From assembly GCA_001782045.1 (NCBI GenBank), contig MFNK01000003.1:269049-333048 (forward strand): a stretch of DNA of 64,000 nt, read 5' to 3'. The position numbers and the translations under genes were made by a program. Below the pieces are notes generated by a model. The model saw only the letters and a list, made by a program, of their open reading frames with translations. It ran no database searches and was not told the DNA's origin. Origin of the DNA: Candidatus Levybacteria bacterium RIFCSPHIGHO2_01_FULL_36_15b (lineage in GTDB: Bacteria > Patescibacteriota > Microgenomatia > Levybacterales > UBA12049). Shown one piece after another: positions 1 to 64,000 of the stretch. Each line of letters opens with the position of its first letter. Position 1 is the stretch's first letter.

Positions 1-1819
1 AATCGGGATGATACTTTTCTGAAAAGTTTAGATAAAACGGTTCAGTTTTTTTGTCAAGAGTAATTGAATAATGAGAAGTATTATTGGTAGTGAAATTTGA
101 TTTCTTAAATGTGCCTTCATTATGCAGGCTTTCTTTTTCTGGTGTCATATAAATAAGGGGTCTTAAGTTATTATTTCTAAAAACTGCAATGCTTTCAGTA
201 TCAATATTCACTTGTTCTAAATAATCTACAGTGCTCAAATACTCTCTTAAACTATCCCAGGATTTTGCACTTATGTCTGAGTCTGCGTGTTCATTACTCT
301 TCAGAGTTATAACTACGTACCCATAAGAGCCTAGGGATAGCAATTTCTTTCCTATTTCAGATGCAAAAAGAGTTTTAAGCTTCTCTCCTTCAACGTTAGA
401 AGAATCCAAATCTATAGATTTATCAAGGTCCTCTATTGATACTTTCCAGTTTTTTAATGTCGCGACATTTGCCGAAATTACTGGAGTTTTATTACTCGAT
501 ATATCCCAGCGATGATCCATATTTATCCAGAACACCCTTGAATATTCATCTTGCCCTGTTAAAAAAGTATTCAGTTTTTCAACATCGGAAGGAACAGTTT
601 TCGGAACAAACACAGTTCCTATAGAACCTGTCAAAAATGGAACGGTATTCCATAGCGGCAACAAAACTATTAAAAATATAATTATGTATTTTGCAAATTT
701 ATGGTTTTCTAAATAATTAAACAGCCAAAGGGCAAAATAGCCTATCAATACCGAATAGCTCAACACAATTAAAAAATAAAACTTACCTGCTTCCCTAAAG
801 GCACTGAATCCCGGTATATAATCGTAAAATAAATTATAGATTTGTCCAAAAGGAGCACTATCTTGTTTTGCCAAAAAAATTCCAACTAATGCAAGTAGGC
901 CGAAGAAAAAAACTTGCTTATTTCTTCTACCAACTATTAATCCTAAGAATGCAACAATAGGAAATAACCAGAAATGTATTAGAATTGGCTGGACTACAAA
1001 CCAGGTTGTTTCTATTCCTGTCCAAAATGGATAAAAAAGAGAACCAACATTTTGAATATTAAAAAAATTACCTTCTATGATGGGTCTATTTAAAAATTCA
1101 TTGTTTGCAAGAGTGCCAGTTGTAAGATTAGGAATTATCCAATAAATATTCAGTATTAATAAGAGGATGAAAACAGAAAAAAATAGAGACAAATTTTTCT
1201 TGAGTTGAGTCCGCCAATTTTTTTCCAGAAAAAACTGATTGTAGAAAAAGTAAAGTAAAATAACTCCACTTACTATATAAAAAGTTCTAAAATCAACGGA
1301 TCCAGACGCAAACAATAAAAGTGTTGTAATCGGTATAAATAGTTTTTTCTTAGTTTCAAGCAAATAAATAAAAGAAAGAAAAGCAAAAGTACAACAAATA
1401 AATCCTAAAGGCAAAAATACGTGGCCCTGAGTTAATATTGAAAGAAAGTAAGTATTGTATGTGAAAATCAGTGACCCAACAAATCCTGCAATATTAGAAT
1501 TTGTAATTTTTCTTGTCAGCAAAAATCCCGCAATAGTACCTAGTATTGCGATTGGCCAGAATATTAAAAACTTCTCGGCAATATTTCCATCAAACCCTAA
1601 CTGTCCAAATAAACCGTATAGAAATCTAAAAGGATATTCCCATAACGTTACCCCCCCTTTCCAAAAGGAAGGGAAAATAAAATCCTTAATTGCGGCATTC
1701 GAACGGAAAACCCAGTCAGCATAAGAAAAGACAGAGAATGAAAACCATTCTTTATACACGATAATAGAAATAATCAACAGAAACTCAAGGGGGAGAAATT
1801 TCAATAATAATTTTTTCAC
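1..1819 (-). CDS. Partial (C-terminus off the left edge) paralog of the ~730-aa polytopic membrane protein family A, probably a GT-C-like glycosyltransferase with a C-terminal extracytoplasmic domain
   Basis: Manual minus-strand translation from a GTG/TTG start near 1819 gives ...KKLLLKFLPLEFLLIISIIVYKEWFSFSVFSYADWVFRSNAAIKDFIFPSFWKGGVTLWEYPFRFLYGLFGQLGFDG.... The frame stays open wherever I checked down to position 1. The product parallels 2813-4993 and 14826-17048 (shared ...FxAFREA.KFY... and ...EPFYLNFSES... segments). It is absent from the ORF track only because no stop falls inside the window. Confidence 0.6.
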   Translation of the reverse strand, partial: MKKLLLKFLPLEFLLIISIIVYKEWFSFSVFSYADWVFRSNAAIKDFIFPSFWKGGVTLWEYPFRFLYGLFGQLGFDGNIAEKFLIFWPIAILGTIAGFLLTRKITNSNIAGFVGSLIFTYNTYFLSILTQGHVFLPLGFICCTFAFLSFIYLLETKKKLFIPITTLLLFASGSVDFRTFYIVSGVILLYFFYNQFFLEKNWRTQLKKNLSLFFSVFILLLILNIYWIIPNLTTGTLANNEFLNRPIIEGNFFNIQNVGSLFYPFWTGIETTWFVVQPILIHFWLFPIVAFLGLIVGRRNKQVFFFGLLALVGIFLAKQDSAPFGQIYNLFYDYIPGFSAFREAGKFYFLIVLSYSVLIGYFALWLFNYLENHKFAKYIIIFLIVLLPLWNTVPFLTGSIGTVFVPKTVPSDVEKLNTFLTGQDEYSRVFWINMDHRWDISSNKTPVISANVATLKNWKVSIEDLDKSIDLDSSNVEGEKLKTLFASEIGKKLLSLGSYGYVVITLKSNEHADSDISAKSWDSLREYLSTVDYLEQVNIDTESIAVFRNNNLRPLIYMTPEKESLHNEGTFKKSNFTTNNTSHYSITLDKKTEPFYLNFSEKYHPD

Positions 1820-1845
1820 TTTTTTTTCAAAGACTATTACGTCTT

Positions 1846-2715
1846 CTAGGAGTTTTTATTTTTAAACTTTAAGTCAAATAGTTGGTAAATTACTCCAGCG
1901 ACCAACACAAAAAAGGCTATTACTGTAAGGTCCATAGAGAGCTGCGTTTTTTTTAGGTAATATACAATTGCTGCTAAGTTAATTATTAAAATTCCAAAGA
2001 TAATAATTAATGCTGACATGTTCTTTTTTGCCCAGCTTAAATTAAAAATTTTTAATTGATTTAAACCAAGATTAATTAAAAATAAGGAAAGAATTATAAA
2101 ATTAACATAAATTCCAGTTCCTATTAAGGTTGGGAAGCCTAACTCTATCTTTTCAATTTTTTCCTCCATTATATAACCTACTAGATTAGAGGGATTTGAA
2201 AACAGATAACTTTTAGGATATTGGTATAAAACTGCGCCCAAGGGTTCTACAGAACTAATACCGATTGAATGTTCCGGTTTCCCATCCAAAGACTCAACTT
2301 CAAAGATATAGGTTTTTGCTTTAGAATTAGAGATAACAGGAAAGCCAAAAGGGAAAAGCATATTAGGTTGAAACTGGCCTGTTGTGTATGCGCTTTCATA
2401 ATACCAATCTTTGGCTCCTTCTTCTTTAATCCTGAAAACAACACTATCCGGATTGATTCTCTGGAAGTTGTAAAAACGAATAGAAACCTGTCCCAAAAAA
2501 TCGTTAGTTGCAATAAAGCTACCTTGAAGCTTCTCACCTTTTATTAGTTCTCCGTAGTCAACGTTCTCAACCTGAAAGTTGCCCGGAGCCTTGGTTGTTA
2601 CAGAAAAAGCTTCTTCCCCTAAGTTGGTTTGAACAACAGTTAAATTAGATGCACTGTAAATATAAACAGCAGTCAAAAATATGAAAAATAATAAGAGTGT
2701 AATTTTTTTTATCAT
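1846..2715 (-). CDS. Hypothetical exported, membrane-anchored protein (N-terminal signal anchor, ~200-aa extracytoplasmic domain, 3 C-terminal TM helices)
   Basis: 289-aa ORF. It has a hydrophobic N-terminus (LLLFFIFLTAVYIY) and a hydrophobic C-terminal third. The stop at 1846-1848 was verified. It sits between two family-A membrane genes. Confidence 0.55.
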   Translation of the reverse strand: MIKKITLLLFFIFLTAVYIYSASNLTVVQTNLGEEAFSVTTKAPGNFQVENVDYGELIKGEKLQGSFIATNDFLGQVSIRFYNFQRINPDSVVFRIKEEGAKDWYYESAYTTGQFQPNMLFPFGFPVISNSKAKTYIFEVESLDGKPEHSIGISSVEPLGAVLYQYPKSYLFSNPSNLVGYIMEEKIEKIELGFPTLIGTGIYVNFIILSLFLINLGLNQLKIFNLSWAKKNMSALIIIFGILIINLAAIVYYLKKTQLSMDLTVIAFFVLVAGVIYQLFDLKFKNKNS

Positions 2716-2812: not shown

Positions 2813-4993
2813 TCACTCATCTTTCCTCTTCTTAATATTCATTACACCGTAATAAGACAGATATCCAGTGACTGCCAGTAAAGTAGTAAGACTCACTATT
2901 CCACCAAGATAGAGGTATAACTGAGGTTTAAAATAAACCGTCGCTTCGATATTATAACTGCCATCAGAATTTTGCTCGCAAGCTATTTGCTTGCAAATAG
3001 ATATGGGACTTAAGAGAAATGAATTAAGGGTAGCATCATTTTCAAAATGATTGCTGTCTGGAATTTGAATCATGGAGTCTTTATGTTCGGAAACTGTGAG
3101 AACTTTCCACCATGCAAAGTCTCCTACGTAAACTGTCCAATCGGGATGGTAACTTTCGGAGAAATTTAAGTAAAAAGGTTCTTTAACATTTTTTAAACTC
3201 ACAGAATATTGTGTGGGATGAACAAACTCATATGAAACCTTTTCAAAAGGAATTTCTTTTCTGATTGTTTCCTTCTCTTGTGTTATGTATAGATGGGGCA
3301 TAAAGTTCTCATTTTCATAAACAGCTAAGTCTTTCGTTCCTATATCTATTTTCTTAAGCCAAGTAATCTTATTCAGACTGTTTATGTAGTACTGTCTGGG
3401 TTCCCCGTAGTGTACAAAAAAGTCATCATCATTAGCCTTATCTTGGATTGGAACATAAACATATCTTATCGAAGACAATTTAAACAAATTTGGAGTATTT
3501 TTATAATTCAAAAAAGATAAAGTTTGCTGGGCTTGATTTGAATTATCATCTGATAAGAAGCTATTAAATAGATTCTTCCACTCAATATTTACAATATCAA
3601 TCAAGCTAATTTCCGGGTGAATATTTGTAAAGAAAGTCCACTTTGAAACTTTAGGTATCCAAAGAGTTCTAAAATAATCTGATTGTTTATTTATAAAATC
3701 TTTATTAACTATATAATCTTTTGGTATCGTGCGTGTGACAAAGAGGGTTCCTATCTCCCCTGTGATCAAAGGTTTCGTATTCCATAAAAATATTGCAATG
3801 ATTAGAATCGTAAGAAAATATTTTCCATAAACACTCATTCTAGTTTTTTTCCAATTCTTCCATAACCATGCCACAAAACCGGTAATCAGTACAGAATAAC
3901 CCAGAGCTGTAAGGGGATAAAACTTACTTGCTTCCCTAAAAGCATCAAATCCTGGCAAATGCAAATAAAGCCACAAATACAAACCTGGAAAAGGGGCTCC
4001 TGATTGTTTTGTTAGTAGAATACCCAAAAGAGCAAGTAAACCAAAAAATATTACAATTTTATTCTTTCTATTTAGATATAATCCCAAAAATGCAACAATA
4101 GGTATCAACCAATAATAAATAGGGATTTGTTGAGGATTAAATACTGCAGGTAAAGAACCTGACCAGAATGATTGGTAAAGCGTAATTGAATATAAAATGT
4201 TTGAAAATCCATCACCGAATAAACCTCTATGGAAGAGATCACTATTTGTTAAAGACCCCGAATGGGAAAGTCCCATTATCCAATAAGAACTAAGGAGAAA
4301 AGCGATTATTGCGGGTACCAGACCGACAGTAAATTTGTGAATTAAATGCCGTAATTGTTTTTTATTATTAATAAATAGTAAGTAGTAAATAAAATACATA
4401 GATAATATAATTCCCATTACATATCCCGCCCTAGTCTCATAAGAAATTATGATAAATAAAGATAGGGCTGTGAGCAATATATAAACTAATTTTTCTCTAT
4501 CTAGACTCTCTATGTAAAAAAATATTACTAGAGGAAACAAGGCAAAAGCTGCCATTAAGGTTAAGGTTCCAGTCTGCAAAATAAGAAAATACGTATTGAA
4601 ACTATAAATCAGAATACCTGTAACTACTGCGGCCTTATTCTTAAATAATTTATTAAGAAGAAAATATGAAGAAATTGGAGATAAAATTACAGCCGGCCAA
4701 AAATGAATGAGTCTTTCCGACAAAGCATAACTTAAGCCAAAATACTTTGAGAGTATTCCATATAACGCGTACGTTGGTGCTTGACTAACATCTACAATTA
4801 CACGACCAAAAGAAGCATCTCCTAACCATAGTGTGAAATAATATAAACGAAGACTGCTCATGGTTTCTTCAAAGAAAAAAATCCAATCTCCGCTCGTTAA
4901 AATTTCCAGGTTCAAGAACCAAGTGTGGTATACCACCATATAGATGACTATTAAAAAAATCATCCAGGACAAATGTTTTATCTTGTTAAACAT
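2813..4993 (-). CDS. Family A polytopic membrane protein (726 aa): N-terminal ~12-TM domain plus ~300-aa C-terminal extracytoplasmic domain and a terminal TM; putative GT-C-like glycosyltransferase
   Basis: Long hydrophobic N-terminal half and a hydrophilic C-terminal domain ending in the TM LYLGGIVSLTTLLAVTGYL. Paralogous to 14826-17048 and to partial 1-1819, with nucleotide-level similarity (e.g. aaacttac(c/t)tgcttccctaaa). Confidence 0.8.
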   Translation of the reverse strand: MFNKIKHLSWMIFLIVIYMVVYHTWFLNLEILTSGDWIFFFEETMSSLRLYYFTLWLGDASFGRVIVDVSQAPTYALYGILSKYFGLSYALSERLIHFWPAVILSPISSYFLLNKLFKNKAAVVTGILIYSFNTYFLILQTGTLTLMAAFALFPLVIFFYIESLDREKLVYILLTALSLFIIISYETRAGYVMGIILSMYFIYYLLFINNKKQLRHLIHKFTVGLVPAIIAFLLSSYWIMGLSHSGSLTNSDLFHRGLFGDGFSNILYSITLYQSFWSGSLPAVFNPQQIPIYYWLIPIVAFLGLYLNRKNKIVIFFGLLALLGILLTKQSGAPFPGLYLWLYLHLPGFDAFREASKFYPLTALGYSVLITGFVAWLWKNWKKTRMSVYGKYFLTILIIAIFLWNTKPLITGEIGTLFVTRTIPKDYIVNKDFINKQSDYFRTLWIPKVSKWTFFTNIHPEISLIDIVNIEWKNLFNSFLSDDNSNQAQQTLSFLNYKNTPNLFKLSSIRYVYVPIQDKANDDDFFVHYGEPRQYYINSLNKITWLKKIDIGTKDLAVYENENFMPHLYITQEKETIRKEIPFEKVSYEFVHPTQYSVSLKNVKEPFYLNFSESYHPDWTVYVGDFAWWKVLTVSEHKDSMIQIPDSNHFENDATLNSFLLSPISICKQIACEQNSDGSYNIEATVYFKPQLYLYLGGIVSLTTLLAVTGYLSYYGVMNIKKRKDE

Positions 4994-5021
4994 ATAGGTT
5001 TAGCTAAATTTGAATTTATAT

Positions 5022-6212
5022 CTAGTTTACTCTCGCAATATCAGATAAGACTTTATGAAGACGCTTATATATTCTTCCTGGGTCGAATCTAGCCTCGGTA
5101 ATTTCTTTAATCAATTCTACTTTAAAAATACCCTTATTTCTTGAAATTTGGATTATCTTTTTTGCAAATTCCTTATTACTACTGACAAGAAATCCCGTTT
5201 TATTCTGCTCGATTATATCACGAGGACCTGCGGGCATATTAAACGCAATTACGGGCAATCCTGCCGCCTGAGCCTCCAGAACACTATATGAAAACGTTTC
5301 CCACTTACTAGTACAGATAAATAAATCATTTTCTTTATAAATACTCGGCATGTATCTATGCTCTACGGATCCCATATAATTCACGTTATTCCATCTCTCA
5401 GCTGACTTAATAATTTTCTCTCTAAGAACCTTACTTCCGTCACCAATAATATTAAAAATAAACTGATTTTCATATCCTCTTAAATTAAGATAGTCAATCA
5501 CGGACAATAAGTCAGGAATTCCTTTCCCTTCTGCAAGTCTACCGACCCATAGAATATTGAGTTTTTTCTTATCCCAATTATGGTTAAACTTACTGTTTCT
5601 TCTAGTATTATTTGTTTTAAAATCTAAGGCATTATAAATCTTAACTATGTTCTTAGCGGGCATTAACCTTCTAAGATATTGCTCATCAGAACTGTTAAGC
5701 ACGTGAAACGCCTTAACATCTGATGTTAAAAATCTGTAAATGAAACCGCTATAGAGAAAATTATGCAGTTTCGATTGTAAAGATTTTGTTTCCGGGTAAT
5801 AAAAAGGTGTATGACAACCAAATATAACTGGAGGTAAATTTTCATATCCAACTAGGAATTTTAAAATAAAGGCTTCCAGAACTTCATTTTTGCTGTAAAT
5901 TACATCATATTCCTGAAGCTTCTTTCGAAGTGATCTTATAGAATCTACTTTAAAATAACCAGCGTCGCCTAAATTTTCCTCGATGTTCTTTTTGCTCTCT
6001 TTATAAATAAGACTCATGTCCATTTTTGATACAAAAGATAAATAGAATATATGAGTCAATCTCATGATTGTTAAGGCGAACTTATCATCCATGGTGACAA
6101 CGTCTGCTTTGACCGAAGGTAATTTAGATAAATTAGATGAGGTTTCGATAAAATACTTCGCAAGTCCTCCACCATGCTCTAGAAAAAATACAGTAAAAAA
6201 GGCTACTTTCAT
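5022..6212 (-). CDS. Glycosyltransferase family 4 (GT-B fold)
   Basis: GRLAEGKGIPDLL... and the E-x7-E region ...TFSYSVLEAQAAGLPVIAFNMPAGPRDII. Confidence 0.8.
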   Translation of the reverse strand: MKVAFFTVFFLEHGGGLAKYFIETSSNLSKLPSVKADVVTMDDKFALTIMRLTHIFYLSFVSKMDMSLIYKESKKNIEENLGDAGYFKVDSIRSLRKKLQEYDVIYSKNEVLEAFILKFLVGYENLPPVIFGCHTPFYYPETKSLQSKLHNFLYSGFIYRFLTSDVKAFHVLNSSDEQYLRRLMPAKNIVKIYNALDFKTNNTRRNSKFNHNWDKKKLNILWVGRLAEGKGIPDLLSVIDYLNLRGYENQFIFNIIGDGSKVLREKIIKSAERWNNVNYMGSVEHRYMPSIYKENDLFICTSKWETFSYSVLEAQAAGLPVIAFNMPAGPRDIIEQNKTGFLVSSNKEFAKKIIQISRNKGIFKVELIKEITEARFDPGRIYKRLHKVLSDIARVN

Positions 6213-6291: not shown

Positions 6292-7284
6292 ATGATAAAC
6301 CAGCATATTACAATATTCATTCCAACATACAATAACGAGACAACTATTTTAGATACCCTACAAAGCATAGAAAGACAGAAAACAAATCAGATTCGTAAAA
6401 TAATCATTATCGATGATGGGTCAACTGATCAAACTATAGATCTTATTAATAATCATATTAAAACTTCTCACATTGAATTCAATTTTATCAAGAACACCAA
6501 ACCAACAGGATTGTCTAGAAAATATAATAAGGCAATTGATTTAGTTAAAACAGAGTTATTGATAATAATGCACGCTGATATTGTAATAGAGAGAAATAAT
6601 GCTATAGAAAAATATTATAAAATTATGGAAAACGAAAGCAATGTTGCGGCCATAAGTAAGATTAGACATAGATTCGAAGACTGGAAAAAATTTACTTTTT
6701 GGGAAAAATGTGAATTCGATAGATTCCTCATGTCTCAAAGGCATTTTCTTGCTGCCAAATTTGATATTTATAGAGTTTCTGCTCTTAAAAAAGTCGGTAA
6801 GTTTGATGCAGAAAAATATTACGCGGGAGGAGAGGATGCTGATTTGTGGTTAAAACTAGAGAAATTAGGAAACATCATAAAATCAGAAAACGTGTATATA
6901 CATAAACAATCTTTCGCTAAAGATTATTCTCTTTTTAGATTAATTTATAGAAGTGCAAGATATGCAGAAGCGGCAGGGGCAGTACTTAAAAACCATTACA
7001 GTCAATATAGTCTTATAGATCTAATGTTACTTTTCTTCAGAGAATTTCTAACTTTATTTTTCGTAATTGGACTTGTCATCTATTTATTATTTGAAATATC
7101 TCTATTGCTAATTGCAGCAATATTTTTATTTATATTGTTTTCTTTTGCAAACACGAAAAATACTTATTTATATTCTGGTATGAACCCAAGAATTTTAATT
7201 TTACCTTTCGTCAATGTTTGCTTAATCTTTGTAAGCAATTTTTTTGTTCTCAGAGGGTTCATAAGGGGTAAAGAAGTTTTATAA
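6292..7284 (+). CDS. Glycosyltransferase family 2 with C-terminal transmembrane segments
   Basis: N-terminal IFIPTYNNETTILDTLQSI...IIIIDDGSTDQT (GT-A DxD region). The C-terminal ~80 aa are hydrophobic. Confidence 0.8.
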   Translation: MINQHITIFIPTYNNETTILDTLQSIERQKTNQIRKIIIIDDGSTDQTIDLINNHIKTSHIEFNFIKNTKPTGLSRKYNKAIDLVKTELLIIMHADIVIERNNAIEKYYKIMENESNVAAISKIRHRFEDWKKFTFWEKCEFDRFLMSQRHFLAAKFDIYRVSALKKVGKFDAEKYYAGGEDADLWLKLEKLGNIIKSENVYIHKQSFAKDYSLFRLIYRSARYAEAAGAVLKNHYSQYSLIDLMLLFFREFLTLFFVIGLVIYLLFEISLLLIAAIFLFILFSFANTKNTYLYSGMNPRILILPFVNVCLIFVSNFFVLRGFIRGKEVL

Positions 7285-46537: not shown

Positions 46538-46771
46538 GTGGTGAATAATTTTCTAATTCCGCAAATTCCCTCATTGCTTCTTTTTGCAGCTTTCCTTTGG
46601 ACTTTGCTTTGGAAAGGCATAGCACTATGGAGAGCCGCCAACTTAAAACAAAAGAATTGGTTTATAGCAATTCTTGTTTTAAACACGTTAGGAATTCTAG
46701 AGCTTGTTTACTTGTTTTATTTTGCTAAAAAAAGGCTTACCATACAAGAACTTAAATTTTGGGAAAAATAA
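46538..46771 (+). CDS. Possible small 2-TM membrane protein (77 aa, GTG start), PLDc_N-like pattern
   Basis: Two hydrophobic helices (LLLFAAFLWTLLW / WFIAILVLNTLGILELVYLFYF). Its 3' end overlaps the convergent gene 46697-49051 by 75 nt, which lowers confidence. Confidence 0.3.
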   Translation: MVNNFLIPQIPSLLLFAAFLWTLLWKGIALWRAANLKQKNWFIAILVLNTLGILELVYLFYFAKKRLTIQELKFWEK

Positions 46772-51604: not shown

Positions 51605-51607
51605 ATT

Positions 51608-55429: not shown

Positions 55430-57054
55430 ATTTTTTTTCTATATACCCAAAATAAAATCGTAGTTACTATAAATGAAATTATTGAAATAAAATTACTTAA
55501 GCTTCTTAAAGGAGTTTCTTCAAAGCGTAAGCTTACATCGTTACTGCCCTTGTTTAATCTTAACCTTATTACTCCTCTTGGGTTATCATAGTCTATTTTA
55601 GTGCTTATTCCATTAACGTAAGCATTCCAACCTGGATAATATATCAAATTCACCTGAACCGTTCTTTCTTTTTCTAGAAATGTGCTAAAGCTGATTTTAT
55701 TTGCAAGCGTTTGTGATAATATTATTTTTTCATTTCCGTCTAAAATTTCTACTTTCTCGCTCGCCTGTTGTCTAGGCATTGTTTTTACCCATAAGGGCAT
55801 TAGCTCATTTGAAGATGTAGTAGTCGCTTGATTTGTAGTATAAAATGAGTCTTCCCTTACTATAATAGATTGCGGCTTTGCATGTGGAATAACCAATACA
55901 AATGCAAAGATTGCAAGAAATATAGACATTGCAATAAATCTTTTATCAATTGTTGTCAAATATCCAGCGAGCAGGCTTATCAAGAAAGTAATTACTGCAA
56001 GAAGTGTCCAAGGATAATTTATTTCAGAAATCAGTGGCACGTTAGACCATATAACTGAAGAGAAGGAAAATAAAAGTATAGAAATAGCTAAAGTCGATAA
56101 AATTAAATAAATTGCAATTCGCGAGTCTCTGCTATTGAATCTGAAAAGAACTAAGAAAAAAACCGTGATAAAAACTAAAATATAGGGTAGTCCTATTTGA
56201 TAACCGAAGCCGTTAATATCGGTTGGCGTACCATATCCCCACTTTGGAGTAATTAAATCCGAAAGGCTTACAAAATACTGGCTTCTGTCTGCAATTGGAA
56301 CCTTAGAAAGTAATATTAAATTTTTTTCAGCAAAAGCCGGTATCCAGAAAAATGCGGCAAGGCAAAGGGAAAGAACAATAGAAAATATAAGATTTAATAA
56401 AAATGAAATATTTTTTTTGAAAATTGCAAAAAACGAAACTAACAATAATACTAACCCAAAAAGAACTGCCATAATGTTATGCATTAGCATTAATAAACAG
56501 TAAAGAATTCCAAATATAAGAATGTCTGGAATAGAATTTGGTTTTTCATAAATTTTCTTTATCCAAAGCAGAATGAGCGGAAAAAGAACAAATGACAAAG
56601 ACTCACCAAGTGAGCCTCTAACATATAAATCCACTATGTGATATGGAATATATATATAAAGAGTTGCGCATATAAACCCCGCTAAGTTATTTTTCCAAAG
56701 ATTTTTTGCCAAAAAAAACATTGAAAGAAACGATAAAACTACACTTAATGCAAAGAGAATTTTTATACTTGTAATAAATCCAAGCTTAAGAAAAACAAAA
56801 ACCAGTCCTAAATAATAAGGAAGTGGATATGTAAAGTTAAAAAGTGGATAACCGTATTGAAAATTTAGATAAGTACTATAACGCGCCGGAATCTCGAACG
56901 ACTTAAATTCCCTATACATTTCTGAAAGCCTTACAACTGCCCACTCTCCATCGTGTGTGGGAAAATAACCAGATTTAAAATAAGGCAGTATAAGAGGCAG
57001 ACTTATTACAAAGGATATTAGTAAAATTACAACAATATTTTTGAATTGCTTCAT
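55417..57054 (-). CDS. Family C polytopic membrane protein, tandem paralog
   Basis: ...YFPTHDGEWAVVRLSEMYREFKSFEIPARYSTYLNFQYGYPLFNFTYPLPYY...YIPYHIVDLYVRGSLGES.... Confidence 0.7.
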   Translation of the reverse strand: MKQFKNIVVILLISFVISLPLILPYFKSGYFPTHDGEWAVVRLSEMYREFKSFEIPARYSTYLNFQYGYPLFNFTYPLPYYLGLVFVFLKLGFITSIKILFALSVVLSFLSMFFLAKNLWKNNLAGFICATLYIYIPYHIVDLYVRGSLGESLSFVLFPLILLWIKKIYEKPNSIPDILIFGILYCLLMLMHNIMAVLFGLVLLLVSFFAIFKKNISFLLNLIFSIVLSLCLAAFFWIPAFAEKNLILLSKVPIADRSQYFVSLSDLITPKWGYGTPTDINGFGYQIGLPYILVFITVFFLVLFRFNSRDSRIAIYLILSTLAISILLFSFSSVIWSNVPLISEINYPWTLLAVITFLISLLAGYLTTIDKRFIAMSIFLAIFAFVLVIPHAKPQSIIVREDSFYTTNQATTTSSNELMPLWVKTMPRQQASEKVEILDGNEKIILSQTLANKISFSTFLEKERTVQVNLIYYPGWNAYVNGISTKIDYDNPRGVIRLRLNKGSNDVSLRFEETPLRSLSNFISIISFIVTTILFWVYRKKIWNH

Positions 57055-58700
57055 GTACCAACTATTCTAAACGCAACGCTGCCGTCTAAGAAGTAAATAG
57101 TTTTAATAAGTCCGGGTGCGTTTTCTGGAATCTCATTGGGACTGCCTATTAAAAGAGTGTTTTTAAGCTGACTATCCTGACTATAGTTTATTTTTCTGAA
57201 TTCATATTTACCGATAACCCTTCTCATCCTCTCAACTTGTCCGCTACCTTGATAGTTCCAATTTTTTTGATACCAAGAAGGTTCAATTTTATTATGGAAT
57301 AGATAGTAAATATATGGCTGGTCATAAATGTAAGTAAAAAGAATTTTGCTGTATTTATTTTCAACTGACTTAGCTTCTAAAACTGCTTCTTTGTTTCCAT
57401 ATTGCCACCAATGACTTATCTGGCGAGGAGTATGGACATAATACTGATGGAGATAATAAGCAAAGTTAATAACGAAAAGTCCGGCAGTTATTACAAGAAG
57501 AATTTTGTATTTGTAATTATTTCTATTTAAGAAAAAATAGTACACGCCAAGTGCTGTAAATATAGAGAATGCCGGTGCCATGGCAATAGCTCGTACTGGA
57601 TGCGGCGTACCTGTACTAACTGCTGAAGACAAAGGTGCAATTAAAAATAGAACCAAAATCAATAATGATTTTTTAGTTCTATCCCTAAAAATAAAATATA
57701 TTCCAAATATAATAAAGGGCAATTCCCATAGGTATTGCATTCCCATGTTTACTGCATGGTGTTGTCCACCGCCATCTCCATTAAAAAATAAAAAATCAGG
57801 ATTCCAATGATCAAAATACCCCTTTGCAAGAGCTAAGAAATAGACAACTCTTCTGTTGTCTAGAATCGCGCCTATTTTGTCACTGCGAGAATAATCGTAT
57901 TCAAGCCTCTTTATCGAAGGATTTATTGTTTCACCTGTGGCAAAAATTGATACCATAGAAAGCCTAGAACCGGATCCACCGATTGATATAAAGCTTGAGT
58001 AAACCGGCAGAGAAATAATTAAGCCGAAAAGAAGTGAAACAAGATAGTATTTTTTGTTAACGAGTATATCTTTCCAAAAAAGAAGCGTAAAGGCGGCAAT
58101 GAAAAGAGGCGTAATCAAAACAAAACTATGGTAGGAATATATGCTTAAAACAAAAGAGATTGCCGCAAGAATTGCCAGCCATTTCGCTTTTAAACTTTTA
58201 AGAAGCAATAAAAATGCCAATAGAAAAAAGAATATCCCTGCATTACCTTCAAACGCAGCTCTAGAAAATTGCAAACTCCAAGGGGAAACTCCCCAAAAAA
58301 ATGCAGCTAATATTGCCAATATCTCTTTTTTGTTTTTTTCTAATTTAGAAAAAATTTCTTTTGTTAAGAAGTAAATTGTAATAACTGACAAAAATCCCAA
58401 GATCGCTGAGGGAAGTCTAACTCCCATTTCACTCAAGCCGAATAAGGCAATGCTGGGTACTGAAAGATAAATATAGGCAGGTGGTTTATAATCGCCAAAG
58501 GATCTAATTGATAATGGAAGTTTATTTCCATATTCATCGGCTCCAGTCTTAAGAATCGAATATGCATTATATCCGATGCTCGCCTCATCCCAATCTAAAG
58601 AAGGAGGATTTACTCCTAAATTATAAAATCTTAGAAAAAAAGCGAGTAAAAACACAAACGTTAAAATAATCAAATATATATTTTTTTTAAATAGATACAT
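57051..58700 (-). CDS. Glycosyltransferase family 39-like (PMT_2-type) membrane protein
   Basis: ...LRFYNLGVNPPSLDWDEASIGYNAYSILKTGADEYGNKLPLSIRSFGDYKPPAYIYL...RLPSAILG.... Confidence 0.8.
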   Translation of the reverse strand: MYLFKKNIYLIILTFVFLLAFFLRFYNLGVNPPSLDWDEASIGYNAYSILKTGADEYGNKLPLSIRSFGDYKPPAYIYLSVPSIALFGLSEMGVRLPSAILGFLSVITIYFLTKEIFSKLEKNKKEILAILAAFFWGVSPWSLQFSRAAFEGNAGIFFFLLAFLLLLKSLKAKWLAILAAISFVLSIYSYHSFVLITPLFIAAFTLLFWKDILVNKKYYLVSLLFGLIISLPVYSSFISIGGSGSRLSMVSIFATGETINPSIKRLEYDYSRSDKIGAILDNRRVVYFLALAKGYFDHWNPDFLFFNGDGGGQHHAVNMGMQYLWELPFIIFGIYFIFRDRTKKSLLILVLFLIAPLSSAVSTGTPHPVRAIAMAPAFSIFTALGVYYFFLNRNNYKYKILLVITAGLFVINFAYYLHQYYVHTPRQISHWWQYGNKEAVLEAKSVENKYSKILFTYIYDQPYIYYLFHNKIEPSWYQKNWNYQGSGQVERMRRVIGKYEFRKINYSQDSQLKNTLLIGSPNEIPENAPGLIKTIYFLDGSVAFRIVGT

Positions 58701-60396
58701 ATATTATCCTAAAGGCCCTTGTACCATCTTTCCTATATAGATTCGTGTGCTTTAAAAGGTTCAAGCCTTTATAATCCTTACAGTTTCCACTGTCGATAAT
58801 AATCGTATTTTTTGCTATGGGAATTGACGGGTCAAGATTATACGAGGGACATTCCGAATTCGCAAAATAAAACTTTCCAAACCCCTTACCAGGCTTATCT
58901 TTTGGAGAACCTTCTTTTTGATATTGTACTGGATCATACTGCATATAGAATAAAACCAGCGGATATATTCCACCGAAAGATTTACTAATAATAATCCCAT
59001 TTGTATTTAAGTAATTATCCTTAACAATTTTCATCATTTTGTCGAAACCTTCGTATCTGTACCAATTTCTATGGACCTGAGTTTGGATAAAATATTGATG
59101 TAAAAAATAGGAAAAATTATAAAGTAGGAAAATTGCAAAAATTGCAATAAATAATTTAGATAATTTTCCTGGATACTTCTCAATAATCTTAACAAAGCCA
59201 AGCGCTACAATAAGGCCAATTATAGGAAACATTACAATCGCTCTTTGTAGGTTTGGAACATCATCAACAGTAATTGCAGCAACAACTGGAGCAATTAAAA
59301 GCCACACAAGAGGCAGTTTGTGAAAGATATCTTTTGAGAGAAGTAAGTAAAAAATACCTACAATAATAAATGGAAGTTCAACTAAATATAGCAAGCCCAT
59401 GCCCGGCACCTTATACCAATTGGGCCAACCTCCCTGAATAAATAAAAACTGCCCTGAAAAATATTCTAGATAATTTGAAACAAACGCTATGGAATAATTC
59501 GTTATCTTATTATGCGTAAACCTTGTAATAAGTTGCGAGATGTTTTGATTTCCATCTTCGCGAATTTGCTCATCCAAAATAAGCTGTGTTCCTGGTGCAT
59601 TAAAAATATTTACCTGAGAAAATCTTCCTGTTCCTCCTTTAATTAGAAATACGAGCGAAAAAGAGATCAAAGAGACGACTAAAAATGAAAAAATTAAAGA
59701 CATCTTAACGTTTTTTGAAAACTTACCCCAAACGGGAAAAAGAAAAAGTATAAAACATAAGAATAGTAGAGGTACAAAAACTCTTGGCGTATGGTAAAAG
59801 AAAAAGCTAAGCGAAAGAGATATTGCTCCGGCAAAAAAATAAATCGGGCTTCTCTTTTGTATCCCCGCTATTACAAGAGCAAACCCAGAAATTATCCAAA
59901 ATAGCGAAACTATTGTCTCAGCGCTAGCGCGAGACAATACAATACTCCATGGAGCCATAGTCACCAAAATTGCAGCAAGTAAACTTACTCTTTTGTTCTT
60001 AAATAAAAGCTGGGAAAAAAAATAGATAGGCAAAATCATTAATATTCCAAATAATGCCCCTGGTAATCTTGTAGCAAATTCATTTAGTCCTAAAATTTTT
60101 ATTGGCAATATTGTCAAATAATGATATCCAGATGGCCTGTTGTCGCCGAACATGTCTATATACAGCGGCAGACTATTGTTATTTTCATCTTTCCCTGTAA
60201 GCAGGAGGGAATAAGCGTTGTATCCCAAAGAAGCCTCGTCGATGTGAAAACCGAGAGGAACAGAACCTAAGTCATATAATCTTAAAAACGACGCAAATAA
60301 TAAAATGATTCCAAGAATTAACCAAGTTTTTAAATTATTTTTTGATAATTGAATTCTTCCTAGCATAAGCAAATCTAACATTATTATATCCCACAA
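58687..60396 (-). CDS. Glycosyltransferase family 39-like (PMT_2-type) membrane protein, tandem paralog
   Basis: ...LRLYDLGSVPLGFHIDEASLGYNAYSLLLTGKDENNNSLPLYIDMFGDNRPSGYHYL...RLPGALFG.... The annotated start overlaps the upstream gene by 62 nt. The true start is probably an internal Met/Leu near ~60366. Confidence 0.75.
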   Translation of the reverse strand: MWDIIMLDLLMLGRIQLSKNNLKTWLILGIILLFASFLRLYDLGSVPLGFHIDEASLGYNAYSLLLTGKDENNNSLPLYIDMFGDNRPSGYHYLTILPIKILGLNEFATRLPGALFGILMILPIYFFSQLLFKNKRVSLLAAILVTMAPWSIVLSRASAETIVSLFWIISGFALVIAGIQKRSPIYFFAGAISLSLSFFFYHTPRVFVPLLFLCFILFLFPVWGKFSKNVKMSLIFSFLVVSLISFSLVFLIKGGTGRFSQVNIFNAPGTQLILDEQIREDGNQNISQLITRFTHNKITNYSIAFVSNYLEYFSGQFLFIQGGWPNWYKVPGMGLLYLVELPFIIVGIFYLLLSKDIFHKLPLVWLLIAPVVAAITVDDVPNLQRAIVMFPIIGLIVALGFVKIIEKYPGKLSKLFIAIFAIFLLYNFSYFLHQYFIQTQVHRNWYRYEGFDKMMKIVKDNYLNTNGIIISKSFGGIYPLVLFYMQYDPVQYQKEGSPKDKPGKGFGKFYFANSECPSYNLDPSIPIAKNTIIIDSGNCKDYKGLNLLKHTNLYRKDGTRAFRIIYVSI

Positions 60397-62722
60397 AAGA
60401 CACTAAAAATATAAGAGATAATGCACTGATGCCAAGCCCTAACTTAAAACTTTTGGGATTATAATAAAATTCTACTTTATGATTCCCCTTTGGGATTTCA
60501 ACGGCTCTAAAAGAATAATTGGCAATAAGAATTTCTTTTTTATTCCCATCTATTTTTACTTCCCATTCGTTGTAATAATTATCCGATAAGAATAACAGCG
60601 AGGGCTTATCTGCTAAGGCCTGAATGACTATTTTATTTGGAGAATAAGAAACTAAATTAGCTTTTTGAGCCACAGTAAAAGCCGCTTGAAAGCTTGGGCT
60701 TTTCTCTAAGATTAAAGTTTTTCGTAAATCCAAGCTTTTATCATATATTTTTTCCAGTGCTTTATTTTTTGATACAACTATATAATCAGATGTAATAAAA
60801 AATCTTGGCAGTGCGTCTTTATTTTCATAAATTTGCCATGGACTATCTTGCCAAATAAGCGAATATTGATCTTTTGGAAATACTTCTTCGTTAGGTTGCC
60901 AACTATTAGATAGTAGGTTGTCTTTAAAGGTAATATATTTAATTCCTAAAAGATCAAGAAGTTCTTTTCTATAAACATTTTCCCCTAACGATTTTCCGCC
61001 TTGAGAAATATTTACATCAGATCTTGGAATAGTCTTTAGAATTTTTCCGTCCTTTGCCATAGTTACTAACTCCATATACCTTTTTATTATTAAAGGGTCG
61101 TATCCCTCAGCTGAGTAAATTTTTTCATGAGTTTGGAAATTTGTTTCTATATATCCACTTCCATAACCCCAAGATCTATCTATCCCCGAAAGATTTTTTA
61201 TTTCCTTAACTACCTTAGTTTGTGGATAAAAAAATTGAGCTGGAGAAAAAGGAGTTATTTTATTAAAAAAATAAAAAAGGTCAAAAACAATAATTATCAA
61301 AAAAATTGTGGCAATGTTTTTATATTTTCGAAAAGGAATTAACGCTAATAAACTTAAAATAAAAATAGATGATGGTAATATTAAATTCTTTTTAGAGACT
61401 AACAAATCTGAAATCCATGGATATTTTAAATAATAAGGAGCAATAAAAACAAAAATCCATAAAGATAAATATATAAACCCAACGATAACAAGAGGCTTAT
61501 AAACTATTTTTCTTTCTTTTAACCAAATATTTAATCCCATAGCAGATAGGACAGAGGCTGAAAAAGAAAAAAGAAAAATAATTCTTGTGGGAACTCCTGT
61601 ACTTATAAATGGAATATGTAAAGAATTAATGAATAATCCAAAAGGCGTGTTTAATGTAAAAATATAAACAAAAAAAGCCCATGCAAAGAAAAACCAATAT
61701 GGTTTAAATTTTTTCTGAAAAAAAGAAATGAAGATAAAAATTAACGGTAAAACTCCTATATAAGTTACCCTTTCAATATATGTTCCGTTTAACCAATAGT
61801 TTCTAGTTGCTGGATTTCCAAAAAAATCAGGTACAAAGGTAGTTACCGTGTGATACAGGGGAATTAATAAGTTTTTAATAGCATCAATTGAAAAACTACT
61901 TCTTGCAGATTGAGAAAATAAATCAAAAGTAGGAAGCAATTGAAAAGCAGAAAGAAATAAGGGTAAGATGAAAACTGGCAGGTAGTTTAAAACTAGCGTT
62001 AATTTCTTTTTCTCTGAAATTATTTTGTAAATTAAATAAGTAAATGAAAATATAAATACATAAATAGAAACCTGAATATATCCAGCAAGAATTGATAAAG
62101 TAAGAGATAAAATCAATAAAAAGGAAGTTGATATTGTAAGTTTCTTAATATTCTTATCTATTAAGAAAAGTATTATAGGTAACCAAAGGACAGCATGACC
62201 AATAATTCCATATTGGAGCCATACAACCATATACGAGGAAAAAGCAAAAGTGATTGCGCCAAATATAGAGGCAACTTTATAAAGATTATTTTGCCGTAAA
62301 AAAAGAAAAGTAAATATTCCGGCAAGAATTGGCTGAGCAATAATATACATAGCCCAACCTGGAATAATTCCAAATATTAACAGCAATAAATTAAAAGGAT
62401 AAAAAAATCCACTTTGAAAATTGGGCATAAAAGGAGTACCTGAAAAATTATAAGGATTCCATAACGGAATCTGCCAGGTTGCCAGGCTATTTATTGCAAA
62501 TTCTTTCCAAGGAAAAGTCATTCTAATAATGTCAAAACCCTGACCCTTATTGGGTACGCCGCCAGGAGCAATTCCAAAATAAGAGTTTGAACTATATGGA
62601 GAATATTCTCCAACTAAAAGATCTCCAGGAAAAGGGATATATCCTTTAAAAAGGGGGTGGAAAAAAAGAATTACTATAAATCCTATTAGGATATAAGGCC
62701 AAAGCTTTTTAAGCTTCTTCAT
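60335..62722 (-). CDS. YfhO-family-like GT-C membrane glycosyltransferase (795 aa)
   Basis: ...IPLWNPYNFSGTPFMPNFQSGFFYPFNLLLL..., with a C-terminal TM LGLGISALSLIFLVSFVGY. Confidence 0.7.
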   Translation of the reverse strand: MKKLKKLWPYILIGFIVILFFHPLFKGYIPFPGDLLVGEYSPYSSNSYFGIAPGGVPNKGQGFDIIRMTFPWKEFAINSLATWQIPLWNPYNFSGTPFMPNFQSGFFYPFNLLLLIFGIIPGWAMYIIAQPILAGIFTFLFLRQNNLYKVASIFGAITFAFSSYMVVWLQYGIIGHAVLWLPIILFLIDKNIKKLTISTSFLLILSLTLSILAGYIQVSIYVFIFSFTYLIYKIISEKKKLTLVLNYLPVFILPLFLSAFQLLPTFDLFSQSARSSFSIDAIKNLLIPLYHTVTTFVPDFFGNPATRNYWLNGTYIERVTYIGVLPLIFIFISFFQKKFKPYWFFFAWAFFVYIFTLNTPFGLFINSLHIPFISTGVPTRIIFLFSFSASVLSAMGLNIWLKERKIVYKPLVIVGFIYLSLWIFVFIAPYYLKYPWISDLLVSKKNLILPSSIFILSLLALIPFRKYKNIATIFLIIIVFDLFYFFNKITPFSPAQFFYPQTKVVKEIKNLSGIDRSWGYGSGYIETNFQTHEKIYSAEGYDPLIIKRYMELVTMAKDGKILKTIPRSDVNISQGGKSLGENVYRKELLDLLGIKYITFKDNLLSNSWQPNEEVFPKDQYSLIWQDSPWQIYENKDALPRFFITSDYIVVSKNKALEKIYDKSLDLRKTLILEKSPSFQAAFTVAQKANLVSYSPNKIVIQALADKPSLLFLSDNYYNEWEVKIDGNKKEILIANYSFRAVEIPKGNHKVEFYYNPKSFKLGLGISALSLIFLVSFVGYNNVRFAYARKNSIIKK

Positions 62723-62724
62723 TT

Positions 62725-64000
62725 TTAATTTGATATTACCTTGTAAACCCTATAAAACGAGCCCGTATTTCCCTGCTCCACTTGAAAAATTAATTCTAAT
62801 GGAAATTCAGGAGGAATTGGATCATGCTCTTTTTGATAAAAAACATAGTAAGTAGGCATTTTTTTAGCCCTATCTAAAACTTCTTTGGAAATATTATCCA
62901 CTGGCCAGTATCCTTTTATAGTAATATTTTTATTATCTACTAGGTACATTTCAAGAGCAAAAGGCATTAAGCCAAAGGTGCCCTCTGTTGCAATATAAAT
63001 TTTTTCTTTCTTAGCTGCTTTGGAAAAATAATCAATACTTTCTTTCACTCCCCAACCCGCTGCCCAGCTATTAATATATTGACTATTGTCCGCTTTGGCA
63101 ATTCTTGAATTGATAGGGTCATATATAAATTGAATCGAAATAAAAGCCGGAAAGACAAGAAAAAGAATTAATAAGGCTAAGGTTAAATATTGTTTGCTTG
63201 TTTTGTATTTTTTAAATAAAAACTCAATTAGGTAATTTAATCCCAAAGCAGCAAGCGGAATTAGCATTATGCTCATAAAAAATATAAACCGCGGAAAAAT
63301 TACTTTTCCAAAAAGCGCAAGCGCAATAAAAGGAAGTAAAAAATAGATTATGAGTATTAATTTTTCCTTTGCAAAATCCCTAAAATTAATTAAAGAAATA
63401 ATAATTAATACAATGTAGGGAATTTTTAAATATTCGTACAGCCAACTCCAAAGACCATTTAGATTTCCGACGAAAAAGGTAAAAGGATGCTGTAACCATT
63501 CCGAAATCGGATAGACAAAAACAGCATTCTTTGCACTAATCATCTGAAAAAGAGGAGAAAGTCTTAGTACGTTGTAAAGACCATAAGCAATTGCTACGGA
63601 AAAAGCAGATAACAGAGCAAATCGCAATATCTTTTCTTTCCACTTTTTGTCCTTAAAATTAAAAAACAATAAAAAGAACGGTAGGAGATAAATACTAAAA
63701 AAATTTGCGGTTTTTGTTAAAATTCCTCCTCCGATTACAAATCCAAGAGTATAAGCAATTTCAAGTTTTGGCGTCCGTAGTAATAGAATCGATAAATATA
63801 AAGACCAGACAAAAAATGCTGCAACCATGCTATCGTATAGAGCCATTCTGTCTAAAACCACCGCAAGAGGAAAAAATATATAAAGCAAAGATGAGATAAA
63901 TGCAACTTTTTTGTTTTTGAAGAGCTCTAACGTAAGAAACCACAACCCAGCAATTGTAAAAAAGCCTGAAGCCACAGAAACAAGTCTTCCGGCAATTAAA
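62725..64000 (-). CDS. Partial (N-terminus off the right edge) GT39/ArnT-like membrane glycosyltransferase
   Basis: The frame is open to the window end. Translation upstream of the listed GTG start reads ...LIAGRLVSVASGFFTIAGLWFLTLELF..., so the true N-terminus lies beyond 64000. The pattern ...LAVVLDRMALYDSM...GGGILTKTANFF resembles the ArnT/PMT mid-region. Confidence 0.6.
   Translation of the reverse strand, partial: LIAGRLVSVASGFFTIAGLWFLTLELFKNKKVAFISSLLYIFFPLAVVLDRMALYDSMVAAFFVWSLYLSILLLRTPKLEIAYTLGFVIGGGILTKTANFFSIYLLPFFLLFFNFKDKKWKEKILRFALLSAFSVAIAYGLYNVLRLSPLFQMISAKNAVFVYPISEWLQHPFTFFVGNLNGLWSWLYEYLKIPYIVLIIISLINFRDFAKEKLILIIYFLLPFIALALFGKVIFPRFIFFMSIMLIPLAALGLNYLIEFLFKKYKTSKQYLTLALLILFLVFPAFISIQFIYDPINSRIAKADNSQYINSWAAGWGVKESIDYFSKAAKKEKIYIATEGTFGLMPFALEMYLVDNKNITIKGYWPVDNISKEVLDRAKKMPTYYVFYQKEHDPIPPEFPLELIFQVEQGNTGSFYRVYKVISN

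Follow-up and report, generated by a model that had tools for sequence, protein, structure and literature searches.

What does an ultra-small groundwater bacterium of the Microgenomates group of Patescibacteria assemble with a locus in which more than half of the DNA encodes membrane-embedded glycosyltransferases (GTs)? The question is raised by a 64-kb stretch, referred to as the window, of Candidatus Levybacteria bacterium RIFCSPHIGHO2_01_FULL_36_15b (contig MFNK01000003.1, positions 269,049 to 333,048), which holds 19 genes for polytopic proteins of the GT-C type. These genes span 34.3 kb, or 54% of the 64 kb; a preceding sequence-only reading of this DNA had rightly counted 18-19 of them in five or more families, and its estimate of about 40% of the coding capacity was too low. 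The locus probably encodes an assembly line that builds an envelope glycopolymer on the extracytoplasmic side, its core being conserved and its decoration part varying between species.

The window comprises 48 open reading frames (ORFs) of at least 150 amino acids and three small ones, and from position 64000 down to 21204 nearly all ORFs lie on the minus strand. Same-strand neighbours overlap at 26 of 45 junctions and are at most 30 nt apart at 41, which amounts to an operon-like packing. A hydropathy scan reveals 20 large proteins with 7-14 predicted transmembrane (TM) segments. According to Pfam, they are accompanied by five GT4 and ten stand-alone GT2 enzymes, three of the latter being ArnC/GtrB/DPMS-like, plus one GT2 domain fused to a GT-C. 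Two Wzx-type flippases (Polysacc_synt_3) are encoded at 24597-25853 and 51608-53062. The first of two sugar-nucleotide cassettes assembles a GDP-mannose 4,6-dehydratase, an RmlD-like protein, a short-chain dehydrogenase/reductase and a cupin; the second, an epimerase, a cupin, an N-formyltransferase and a DegT aminotransferase. The sequence-only reading had already recognized the two flippases, the three polyprenol-phosphate-sugar synthases and the two nucleotide-sugar pathways, and had seen three methyltransferases where Pfam finds four, one of them a sugar C-methyltransferase. In the public NCBI records, a YfhO gene of the window and one Wzx gene are labelled “hypothetical protein”.

The GT-C proteins fall into PMT_2/PMT-like (6 members, four of them termed PMT2a), famC (4, one as part of the fusion, recognizable by a DQARD motif), YfhO (3), PTPS_related (3) and famD (3). 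Pfam PMT_2/PMT, YfhO or PTPS_related matches are found in 14 proteins, with weaker PMT_2 matches for 28997-30550, 36148-37677 and the C-terminal half of 30547-32859, while the scan returned nothing for 2813-4993, 14826-17048, 32859-34508 and 26899-28041. The PMT model itself (PF02366, cut-off 22.7) is matched by 39328-40950 (43.3 bits) and by the 505-residue protein at the window end (26.5 bits), the other members matching PMT_2 only. Within families, all-versus-all BLASTP identities are 33-42% for the four PMT2a, 29-32% for the three PTPS_related, 31-35% for the three YfhO, 25-28% for famC (three members and the fusion) and 36% for two famD, the gene cut by the window start being the third famD. 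Profile-profile alignment with hhalign connects the families: famD to YfhO (98.3%, E 2e-14), PTPS_related to YfhO (97.7%) and famC to PMT2a (98.2%).

The GT-C fold, with its N-terminal TM module and juxtamembrane helices, is recognized in these proteins: 7-14 hydrophobic segments are predicted in all 19, and a helix bundle is visible in both structure models. An acidic residue right after TM1 is kept in every family, within DWDEA or HIDEA in PMT2a, FTDEA in the 505-residue PMT, (Y/V)DQARD in famC, THDG in PTPS_related, PxD in YfhO and GDW in famD. At least 90% of 44 famD homologues have this residue (D42), and its equivalent in the short GT-C 26899-28041 (D64) is invariant in 45 sequences. As the catalytic Asp of the GT-C enzymes PimE, ArnT and PglB is located just after TM1 (PMC12041525), the post-TM1 acidic residue is probably catalytic in the window proteins as well. 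The hhalign ties and these residues in the families devoid of a Pfam match lead to the count of 19 GT-C genes, and the profile and structure searches, with AftD and ArnT as structural matches, place these proteins among GT-Cs and not among transporters.

Sequence searches of the PDB with the famD, PTPS_related and YfhO profiles gave no match, and a fold comparison was therefore needed. AftD is the best structural match of famD, aligned over 557 residues; since the model of famD has its TM part only up to about residue 420, the match would reach the extracytoplasmic part, an extent deduced from this boundary rather than from residue-level inspection. Some famD homologues, of about 840-1290 amino acids, carry CBM_4_9 (PF02018) or LysM fusions. 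The family is large: its profile retrieves 2,288 sequences at E<=1e-30 and 6,590 at E<=1e-10 among 1.84 billion cluster representatives. An assignment as “MmpA trehalose lipid delivery protein” was discarded, the NCBIfam scores being 24-35 bits for a cut-off of 210, and fold and hhalign placing famD with AftD and YfhO. FamD is a new GT-C family, without a Pfam model.

How might these enzymes be supplied with sugars? The 238-residue GT2 encoded at 53049-53765 matches in the PDB ArnC (9bhc, E 6e-23), GtrB (5ekp, E 1.5e-10) and the archaeal dolichol-phosphate-mannose synthase DPMS (5mlz, E 6.5e-10), over the whole of its own catalytic domain and lacks their TM helices. It is, by homology, a putative polyprenol-phosphate-sugar synthase. 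Paralogs are encoded at 41534-42244 and 23832-24584 and by two more genes just outside the window, one of which has the classical two C-terminal TM helices. The co-occurrence of these ArnC-like synthases and of flippases supports the view that the window GT-Cs would use a lipid-phosphate-linked donor on the outer face of the membrane. Two other candidates were rejected. The GT2 at 6292-7284 was considered as GtrB-like; in the PDB it matches chondroitin synthase and N-terminal domains of the TagF type, and it is left as a generic membrane-anchored GT2. A GtrA-type flippase was sought among the small ORFs, all three of which look cupin-like and are without TM helices.

In the proposed mechanism, pathways of the locus would provide unusual nucleotide sugars through a GDP-6-deoxyhexose branch, with the C-methyltransferase, and an amino-sugar branch, with the aminotransferase and the N-formyltransferase. 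Cytoplasmic GT4 and GT2 enzymes would build lipid-linked primers, and a few ArnC/GtrB-like GT2 would charge polyprenol phosphate with single sugars. The two Wzx-type flippases would carry the lipid-linked intermediates across the membrane to its outer face, where some 20 GT-Cs, each with its own acceptor and linkage specificity, would extend and branch an envelope glycopolymer, either a wall polysaccharide or a lipoglycan. The data show the folds and families of the enzymes, the arrangement in operons, the lineage-wide conservation and the taxon; donors, order of steps, acceptor and the sharing of a single polymer are what we infer here. An extracytoplasmic glycosylation fed by lipid-linked sugars, as put forward by the sequence-only reading, fits the gene content.

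The three enzyme classes of the window are those of the Gram-positive multi-component systems (CsbB/GtcA/YfhO, GtlA/GtlB, CsdAB-EF, S. pyogenes Gac; PMC8035078, PMC5836110). In these systems, a GT-A makes a C55-P-sugar, a GtrA- or Wzx-type flippase moves it, and a YfhO or PMT_2 GT-C transfers it to a wall polymer (PMC8035078). The S. pyogenes rhamnose-polysaccharide variant employs a cytoplasmic GT-A, the Wzx-type flippase GacK and the GT-C GacL (PMC8035078); its association of a TM-less GT-A, a Wzx and a GT-C resembles the conserved PTPS_related x2-GT2s-Wzx sub-module of the present locus. A GT-A synthase, by homology, and a Wzx-type flippase are both present in the window, but GT-As and GT-Cs are not paired one to one. 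Whereas genomes with known multi-component systems carry 1-3 dispersed pairs, each responsible for one decoration, at least 20 GT-Cs of six families are encoded here in one operon, together with about five candidate synthases and two flippases. The known systems act on lipoteichoic acid, wall teichoic acid or rhamnan, and the window is without a GtrA/GtcA flippase. The locus works like the multi-component systems, without being a simple member of them.

This likeness suggests an alternative, in which several independent sets of GT-A synthase, flippase and GT-C lie side by side, each of them attaching a single side-chain sugar to its own, already existing polymer or protein. Decoration is the known mode of the Firmicutes YfhO and PMT_2 enzymes, with three such pairs each in B. 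subtilis and L. lactis (PMC8035078). The sub-modules PTPS_related x2-GT2s-Wzx and GT4-YfhO-GT2-GT2s recur as units, and an ancient block duplication, with copies about 19.3 kb apart, suggests modular growth. Yet the number of synthases and flippases would leave most GT-Cs without a dedicated partner, and the tight, conserved co-linear operon argues for one pathway. One-to-one decoration pairs do not fit such a stoichiometry, while the few-donor logic of mycobacteria does, and we consider juxtaposed decoration systems unlikely.

The assembly of phosphatidylinositol mannosides, lipomannan, lipoarabinomannan (LAM) and arabinogalactan in mycobacteria and corynebacteria (PimE, MptA/B/C, EmbA/B/C, AftA-D) can be likened to the window, as it involves many GT-Cs, few polyprenol-phosphate donors and one linkage per enzyme. 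The proposed assembly line would amount to an enlarged merger of the Gram-positive multi-component systems with the lipoglycan assembly of mycobacteria. Several mycobacterial GT-Cs besides PimE draw on the same one or two donors. Their genes are scattered or in small clusters over a 4-Mb genome, in contrast to one superoperon in the ultra-small genome of a member of the candidate phyla radiation (CPR). Corynebacteriales possess many GT-Cs, dispersed round the genome, which the figure of 1-3 per bacterium advanced by the sequence-only reading overlooks. In mycobacteria, cytoplasmic GT4 steps and flipping precede the periplasmic GT-Cs such as PimE, which uses the single donor polyprenyl-phosphate-mannose made by Ppm1 (PMC12041525). 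Besides the AftD match of famD, the operon of the window opens with a gene that has a precomputed MptA_B_family match, a weak link. The families differ, with YfhO, PTPS_related, famC and famD here and Emb, Aft and GT87 there, and no PimA-like PDB match was obtained for 45409-46476, the only one queried of the five GT4.

Two further pathways share components with the window. The first is the ArnC/ArnT route to lipid A aminoarabinose: ArnC is the best PDB match of 53049-53765, ArnT the best structural match of the short GT-C, and the window has genes for a formyltransferase and an aminotransferase. However, no ArnD deformylase or ArnE/F family occurs among the Pfam matches, and CPR bacteria are regarded as monoderm and without lipid A. 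The second is the Wzx/Wzy pathway of O-antigen and capsule clusters, with which the window has in common Wzx, GT2 and GT4 enzymes and nucleotide-sugar cassettes swapped between species. Here, in contrast, GT-Cs dominate, and no Pfam family of Wzy, initiating phosphoglycosyltransferase (WecA/WbaP type), chain-length regulator or LCP ligase is present in window ORFs of at least 150 amino acids. The only Wzy candidate, 26899-28041, was rejected as such; it is the short GT-C with ArnT as best structural match.

These and other observations weigh against an assembly line for one glycopolymer. Without an initiator, Wzy or ligase family detected by Pfam, the start and the attachment of the polymer are left unexplained, and no acceptor, anchor or ligase gene was identified in the locus. 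The some 20 GT-Cs could also belong to several distinct systems that adjoin each other. For the 393-residue protein encoded just outside the window, the MptA/B assignment is weak: to the precomputed match (PF26314) is added a TIGR03459 hit of E 1e-9 and 38 bits for a cut-off of 439, and our own Pfam scan gave none. The PMT-family matches are equally compatible with protein O-glycosylation, and the GT2 domain of the fusion 30547-32859 has GmaR and SunS as nearest relatives. GmaR is a flagellin-modifying and SunS a peptide-modifying enzyme. To note, the GT2-GT-C fusion is absent from 80 related loci and is not a conserved feature.

Could the locus then mainly serve protein O-glycosylation, with long or varied glycans on S-layer proteins, pilins or secreted and membrane proteins, as PMT/GT39, the streptococcal Pgf system or TfpW do? 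In the approximately 80 kb inspected, no gene for an S-layer protein, a pilin or a Ser/Thr-rich acceptor was seen, and the characterized YfhO enzymes act on polymers (PMC8035078). Furthermore, AftD is the closest fold to famD, and carbohydrate-binding domains for acceptors among the wall polymers are ascribed in a review to AftD and, possibly, to YfhO (PMC8035078). Together with the CBM_4_9 and LysM domains on some famD homologues, this favours a carbohydrate polymer rather than a protein as the probable acceptor, and protein O-glycosylation as the main function appears quite improbable.

A chimeric assembly of paralogs, which the sequence-only reading had named as a possible source of error, was checked. 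Each of three window proteins, looked up by exact sequence, occurs on 13-15 contigs of independent ENA, JGI and Logan assemblies; on these contigs, 155-282 kb long, the neighbours have the same order and near-identical called lengths. Four window proteins are recorded by exact sequence in NCBI under two Candidatus Levybacteria metagenome-assembled genomes (MAGs; e.g. OGH11565.1 / OGH35640.1), and at least six assemblies of independent origin contain the same locus. The chimera is refuted by this recurrence of identical proteins, in unchanged order, across ENA, JGI, Logan and NCBI assemblies. With the fold assignments above, nothing was found in favour of an artefact, be it a mixture of paralogs or transporters mistaken for GTs, and its likelihood is negligible.

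The same contigs show that the full locus measures at least 75 kb and continues past both window ends. On the right side, the operon starts about 2.3 kb past position 64000 with a GT2, followed by the 393-residue protein (nine predicted TM segments) and the 505-residue PMT-like gene. On the left side, at least 8.6 kb more encode a GtrB-like GT2, a 623-residue protein with 6 TM segments, a GT4, a hexapeptide acetyltransferase and a protein of 1054 residues. The last one (L088:18153-20870, about 5.4-8.6 kb left of position 1) has at least 20 predicted TM helices and no Pfam match.

Is this locus a peculiarity of one genome? When the YfhO alignment was used to scan GTDB, with each species represented by one genome, more than 527 relatives were obtained, the best being 50% identical. 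The records named after an organism are all from Patescibacteria (Levy-, Gottesman-, Shapiro- and Woesebacteria) except one Pacearchaeota MAG. Approximately half of the records bear “uncultured Gammaproteobacteria/Pseudomonadales” titles, which look like placeholders because the gene content and best matches are those of Levybacteria/Patescibacteria. Eighty loci were fetched with 10 kb on either side and searched with hidden Markov models of the window families: GT-C-like ORFs number at most 12 per 22 kb, the median being 7, and 44 further unlabelled polytopic ORFs, some of them GT87, are present. The recurring order is GT2-MptAB-PMT-YfhO-(PMT2a)n-PTPS_related x2-GT2s-Wzx-GT2s, followed by YfhO-GT4-YfhO-GT2-GT2s ... 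PMT2a x2-3-famC-epimerase, and it is contiguous over 44.6 kb in the related loci L017 plus L087. Co-linear MptAB-PMT-YfhO is found in 29 of the 80 loci and PTPS_related x2-GT2s-Wzx in 37, and the order is the same even where orthologues are only 35-50% identical. In Levybacteria and other Microgenomates, the right-hand part of the window (about 38 kb) is a shared superoperon of ancient origin and vertical inheritance.

The paralogs are old too. The sequence-only reading took them for recently diverged, some with nucleotide-level similarity; their proteins are 25-42% identical, and DNA similarity is limited to patches of 31-94 nt at 70-86% identity over conserved motifs. These values rule out recent duplication or gene conversion and, with the gene order conserved in diverged relatives, point to old paralogs. 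In four of the short DNA matches, the two copies are 19.25-19.39 kb apart (34.5-40.9 kb versus 53.8-60.4 kb), which shows an ancient duplication of a block PMT2a-PMT2a-X-PTPS_related, where X is famC in one copy and PTPS_related in the other.

A recently expanded, horizontally acquired or phase-variable genomic island, in line with the “island” of the sequence-only reading, is very hard to reconcile with this history. The GC content is uniform (30-36%) without compositional break, the window has no tRNA gene, and synteny is conserved across the lineage. No recombinase or transposase family is found among the window Pfam matches, which come from a general scan with no integrase-specific search. 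Two features could speak for such an island. The first is a pair of heptanucleotide tandem repeats inside coding sequence, AATTTCC x4.4 (38951-38981, in a PMT2a gene) and TGATGGT x4.1 (32534-32562, in the GT2 fusion), which are possible slipped-strand sites. Phase variation is not supported by these two short repeats, and there is no long homopolymer tract in the window.

The second feature is the left half, which differs by cassette between species. In a sister species (L090, ENA ERZ27253378), whose famD orthologue is 67% identical, the left-half skeleton is kept and cassettes are swapped: an RmlC-type isomerase takes the place of the FkbM methyltransferase and of the formyl-amino-sugar cassette, and one more PTPS_related GT-C is encoded. 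The left half therefore shows O-antigen-like cassette variation between species, and the formyl/amino cassette, absent from the sister species, belongs to an accessory sugar pathway. Of the “combinatorial or variable” system suggested as a possibility by the sequence-only reading, this interspecies swapping of the left half is what stands, the repeats giving it no support. L090 also encodes a nucleotidyl (NTP) transferase, a second C-methyltransferase and, at the locus edge, a DUF2079 protein.

As the sequence-only reading supposed, no description of such a system was found in the searchable literature, and full-text searches returned no paper in which CPR/Patescibacteria or Levybacteria are connected with YfhO, ArnT/PMT-type or GT-C enzymes. 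The nearest precedent found is a Saccharibacteria paper reporting a few PIM-type mannosyltransferases (PMC6031116); a 2024 perspective on Patescibacteria biology leaves glycans, polysaccharides, S-layers and teichoic acids unmentioned. The enzyme classes and their chemistry are known. What is new is the scale, a single superoperon of at least 75 kb with at least 20 GT-C genes, as well as its lineage conservation and famD. The locus would take up about 7% of the genome if this measures about 1 Mb, as a Gottesmanbacteria chromosome and scaffold of 0.995-1.02 Mb suggest.

CPR/Patescibacteria account for a large part of bacterial diversity, and their envelope chemistry is almost uncharted. A branch-wide superoperon predicts a complex surface glycopolymer, important enough to survive in a genome stripped of most biosynthesis. 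A broader proposal, which we put forward as tentative and rather doubtful, is that Levybacteria and other Microgenomates build a large envelope glycopolymer that has so far escaped notice (a LAM-like lipoglycan or a wall heteropolysaccharide) almost wholly outside the membrane with at least 20 GT-Cs, as a lineage-defining trait convergent with Corynebacteriales and possibly central to attachment to hosts or hiding from them. If true, a mode of envelope building otherwise known only from Corynebacteriales would have evolved independently and might be key to the episymbiont life style. The locus offers named targets for glycan chemistry, cryo-electron tomography and heterologous reconstitution, a Pfam-less GT-C family with thousands of members and, with its diverged GT-C paralogs, a natural set for studying the evolution of acceptor and linkage specificity.

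Table 1. Genes of the 64-kb window, with the matches or relatives on which each assignment rests (aa, amino acids; MOP, flippase superfamily; SAM, S-adenosylmethionine).
Feature	Position	Strand	Evidence and remarks
famD GT-C, 692 aa	1-1819	-	C-terminal 86 aa beyond window start; full gene in L001/L088; 30-34% identical to other two famD
289-aa membrane protein	1846-2715	-	N-terminal TM, ~170-aa extracytoplasmic domain, 3 C-terminal TM; no Pfam/NCBIfam match
famD GT-C, 726 aa	2813-4993	-	No Pfam match
GT4, cytoplasmic	5022-6212	-	Glycos_transf_1 E 1e-30
GT2 with 3 C-terminal TM helices	6292-7284	+	Glycos_transf_2 E 1e-24; not ArnC-like by PDB search
RmlD-like 4-keto-sugar reductase	7316-8167	-	RmlD_sub_bind E 4e-71
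GDP-mannose 4,6-dehydratase	8276-9355	+	GDP_Man_Dehyd E 3e-129; NCBI name agrees
126-aa soluble protein, cupin-like by eye	9381-9761	+	Gene call; no TM; no Pfam match
Short-chain dehydrogenase/reductase	9776-10435	+	adh_short E 8e-20
Sugar C-methyltransferase	10484-11710	+	Methyltransf_13, Methyltransf_23, Methyltransf_14
144-aa cupin-like, probable sugar epimerase/isomerase	11707-12141	+	Weak Cupin_2 and Polysacc_synt_C; no TM
GT4	12165-13292	-	Glycos_transf_1 E 4e-8
SAM methyltransferase	13298-13996	-	Methyltransf_11 E 3e-19
GT2	13993-14826	-	Glycos_transf_2 E 7e-27
famD GT-C, 723-740 aa by start codon	14826-17048	-	No Pfam match
NAD-dependent sugar epimerase/dehydratase	17265-18194	+	Epimerase E 2e-46
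132-aa soluble protein, paralog-like of 9381-9761	18191-18589	+	Gene call; no Pfam match
Sugar N-formyltransferase	18586-19308	+	Formyl_trans_N E 2e-13
DegT/DnrJ-type sugar aminotransferase	19311-20417	+	DegT_DnrJ_EryC1 E 6e-93
260-aa soluble protein	20425-21207	+	No Pfam/NCBIfam match
FkbM-type methyltransferase	21204-21896	-	Methyltransf_21 E 1e-11
GT2	21932-22804	-	Glycos_transf_2 E 1e-36
GT4	22756-23835	-	Glycos_transf_1 E 4e-26
Small TM-less GT2, candidate polyprenol-phosphate-sugar synthase	23832-24584	-	Paralog of 41534-42244 (E 3e-21), 53049-53765 (E 2e-17)
Wzx-type (MOP) flippase, 12 TM	24597-25853	-	Polysacc_synt_3, Polysacc_synt
GT4	25850-26902	-	Glycos_transf_1 E 1e-28
Short PMT_2-like GT-C, 380 aa	26899-28041	-	No Pfam match; ArnT best structural match
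NAD-dependent sugar epimerase/dehydratase	28017-28982	-	Epimerase E 6e-59
famC (DQARD) GT-C	28997-30550	-	Weak PMT_2; VDQARD after TM1
GT2-famC GT-C fusion, 770 aa	30547-32859	-	Glycos_transf_2 residues 5-139; PMT_2 323-479
famC GT-C	32859-34508	-	No Pfam match; paralog of 36148-37677 (E 1e-24); YDQARD after TM1
PTPS_related-type GT-C	34511-36151	-	PF10131 E 2.5e-11
famC GT-C	36148-37677	-	PMT_2 E 1.7e-5; hhalign
PMT_2-type GT-C (PMT2a)	37664-39331	-	PMT_2 E 2.6e-10; DWDEA after TM1
PMT_2/PMT-type GT-C (PMT2a)	39328-40950	-	PMT_2 E 6.5e-15, PMT E 4e-11
SAM methyltransferase	40947-41531	-	Methyltransf_23 E 6e-17
Small TM-less GT2, candidate polyprenol-phosphate-sugar synthase	41534-42244	-	33% identical to ArnC-like 53049-53765
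GT2	42241-43161	-	Glycos_transf_2 E 7e-27
YfhO-type GT-C	43163-45412	-	PF09586 E 7e-22
GT4	45409-46476	-	Glycos_transf_1 E 4e-19
YfhO-type GT-C	46697-49051	-	PF09586 E 2e-34
GT2, subfamily of the GT2 domain of the fusion	49035-49787	-	Glycos_transf_2; 28% identical to fusion GT2 domain
GT2	49784-50692	-	Glycos_transf_2 E 1.5e-19
GT2 with one predicted TM	50693-51604	-	Glycos_transf_2; 37% identical to fusion GT2 domain
Wzx-type (MOP) flippase	51608-53062	-	Polysacc_synt_3 E 1e-47
ArnC/GtrB/DPMS-like putative polyprenol-phosphate GT, catalytic domain only, no TM	53049-53765	-	PDB search
PTPS_related-type GT-C	53762-55429	-	PF10131 E 7e-14
PTPS_related-type GT-C	55417-57054	-	PF10131 E 4e-6; 31-32% identical to paralogs
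PMT_2-type GT-C (PMT2a)	57051-58700	-	PMT_2 E 8e-10
PMT_2-type GT-C (PMT2a)	58687-60396	-	PMT_2 E 4e-9
YfhO-type GT-C	60335-62722	-	PF09586 E 2e-30; NCBI OGH11610.1 “hypothetical protein”
PMT_2/PMT-type GT-C, 505 aa	62725-64000	-	N-terminal ~80 aa beyond window end; full gene L005:8481-9998, PMT_2 E 6e-13; FTDEA after TM1

Among the remaining genes, the 289-residue membrane protein (1846-2715) sits between two famD genes and may serve as an accessory subunit or as one that binds the acceptor. Upstream of the operon start, L005:3097-6218 holds a serpin-like ORF (weak Pfam match), a GIY-YIG protein and an NMT1-type ABC transporter; in many relatives, a Lon protease gene abuts the operon start at this place.

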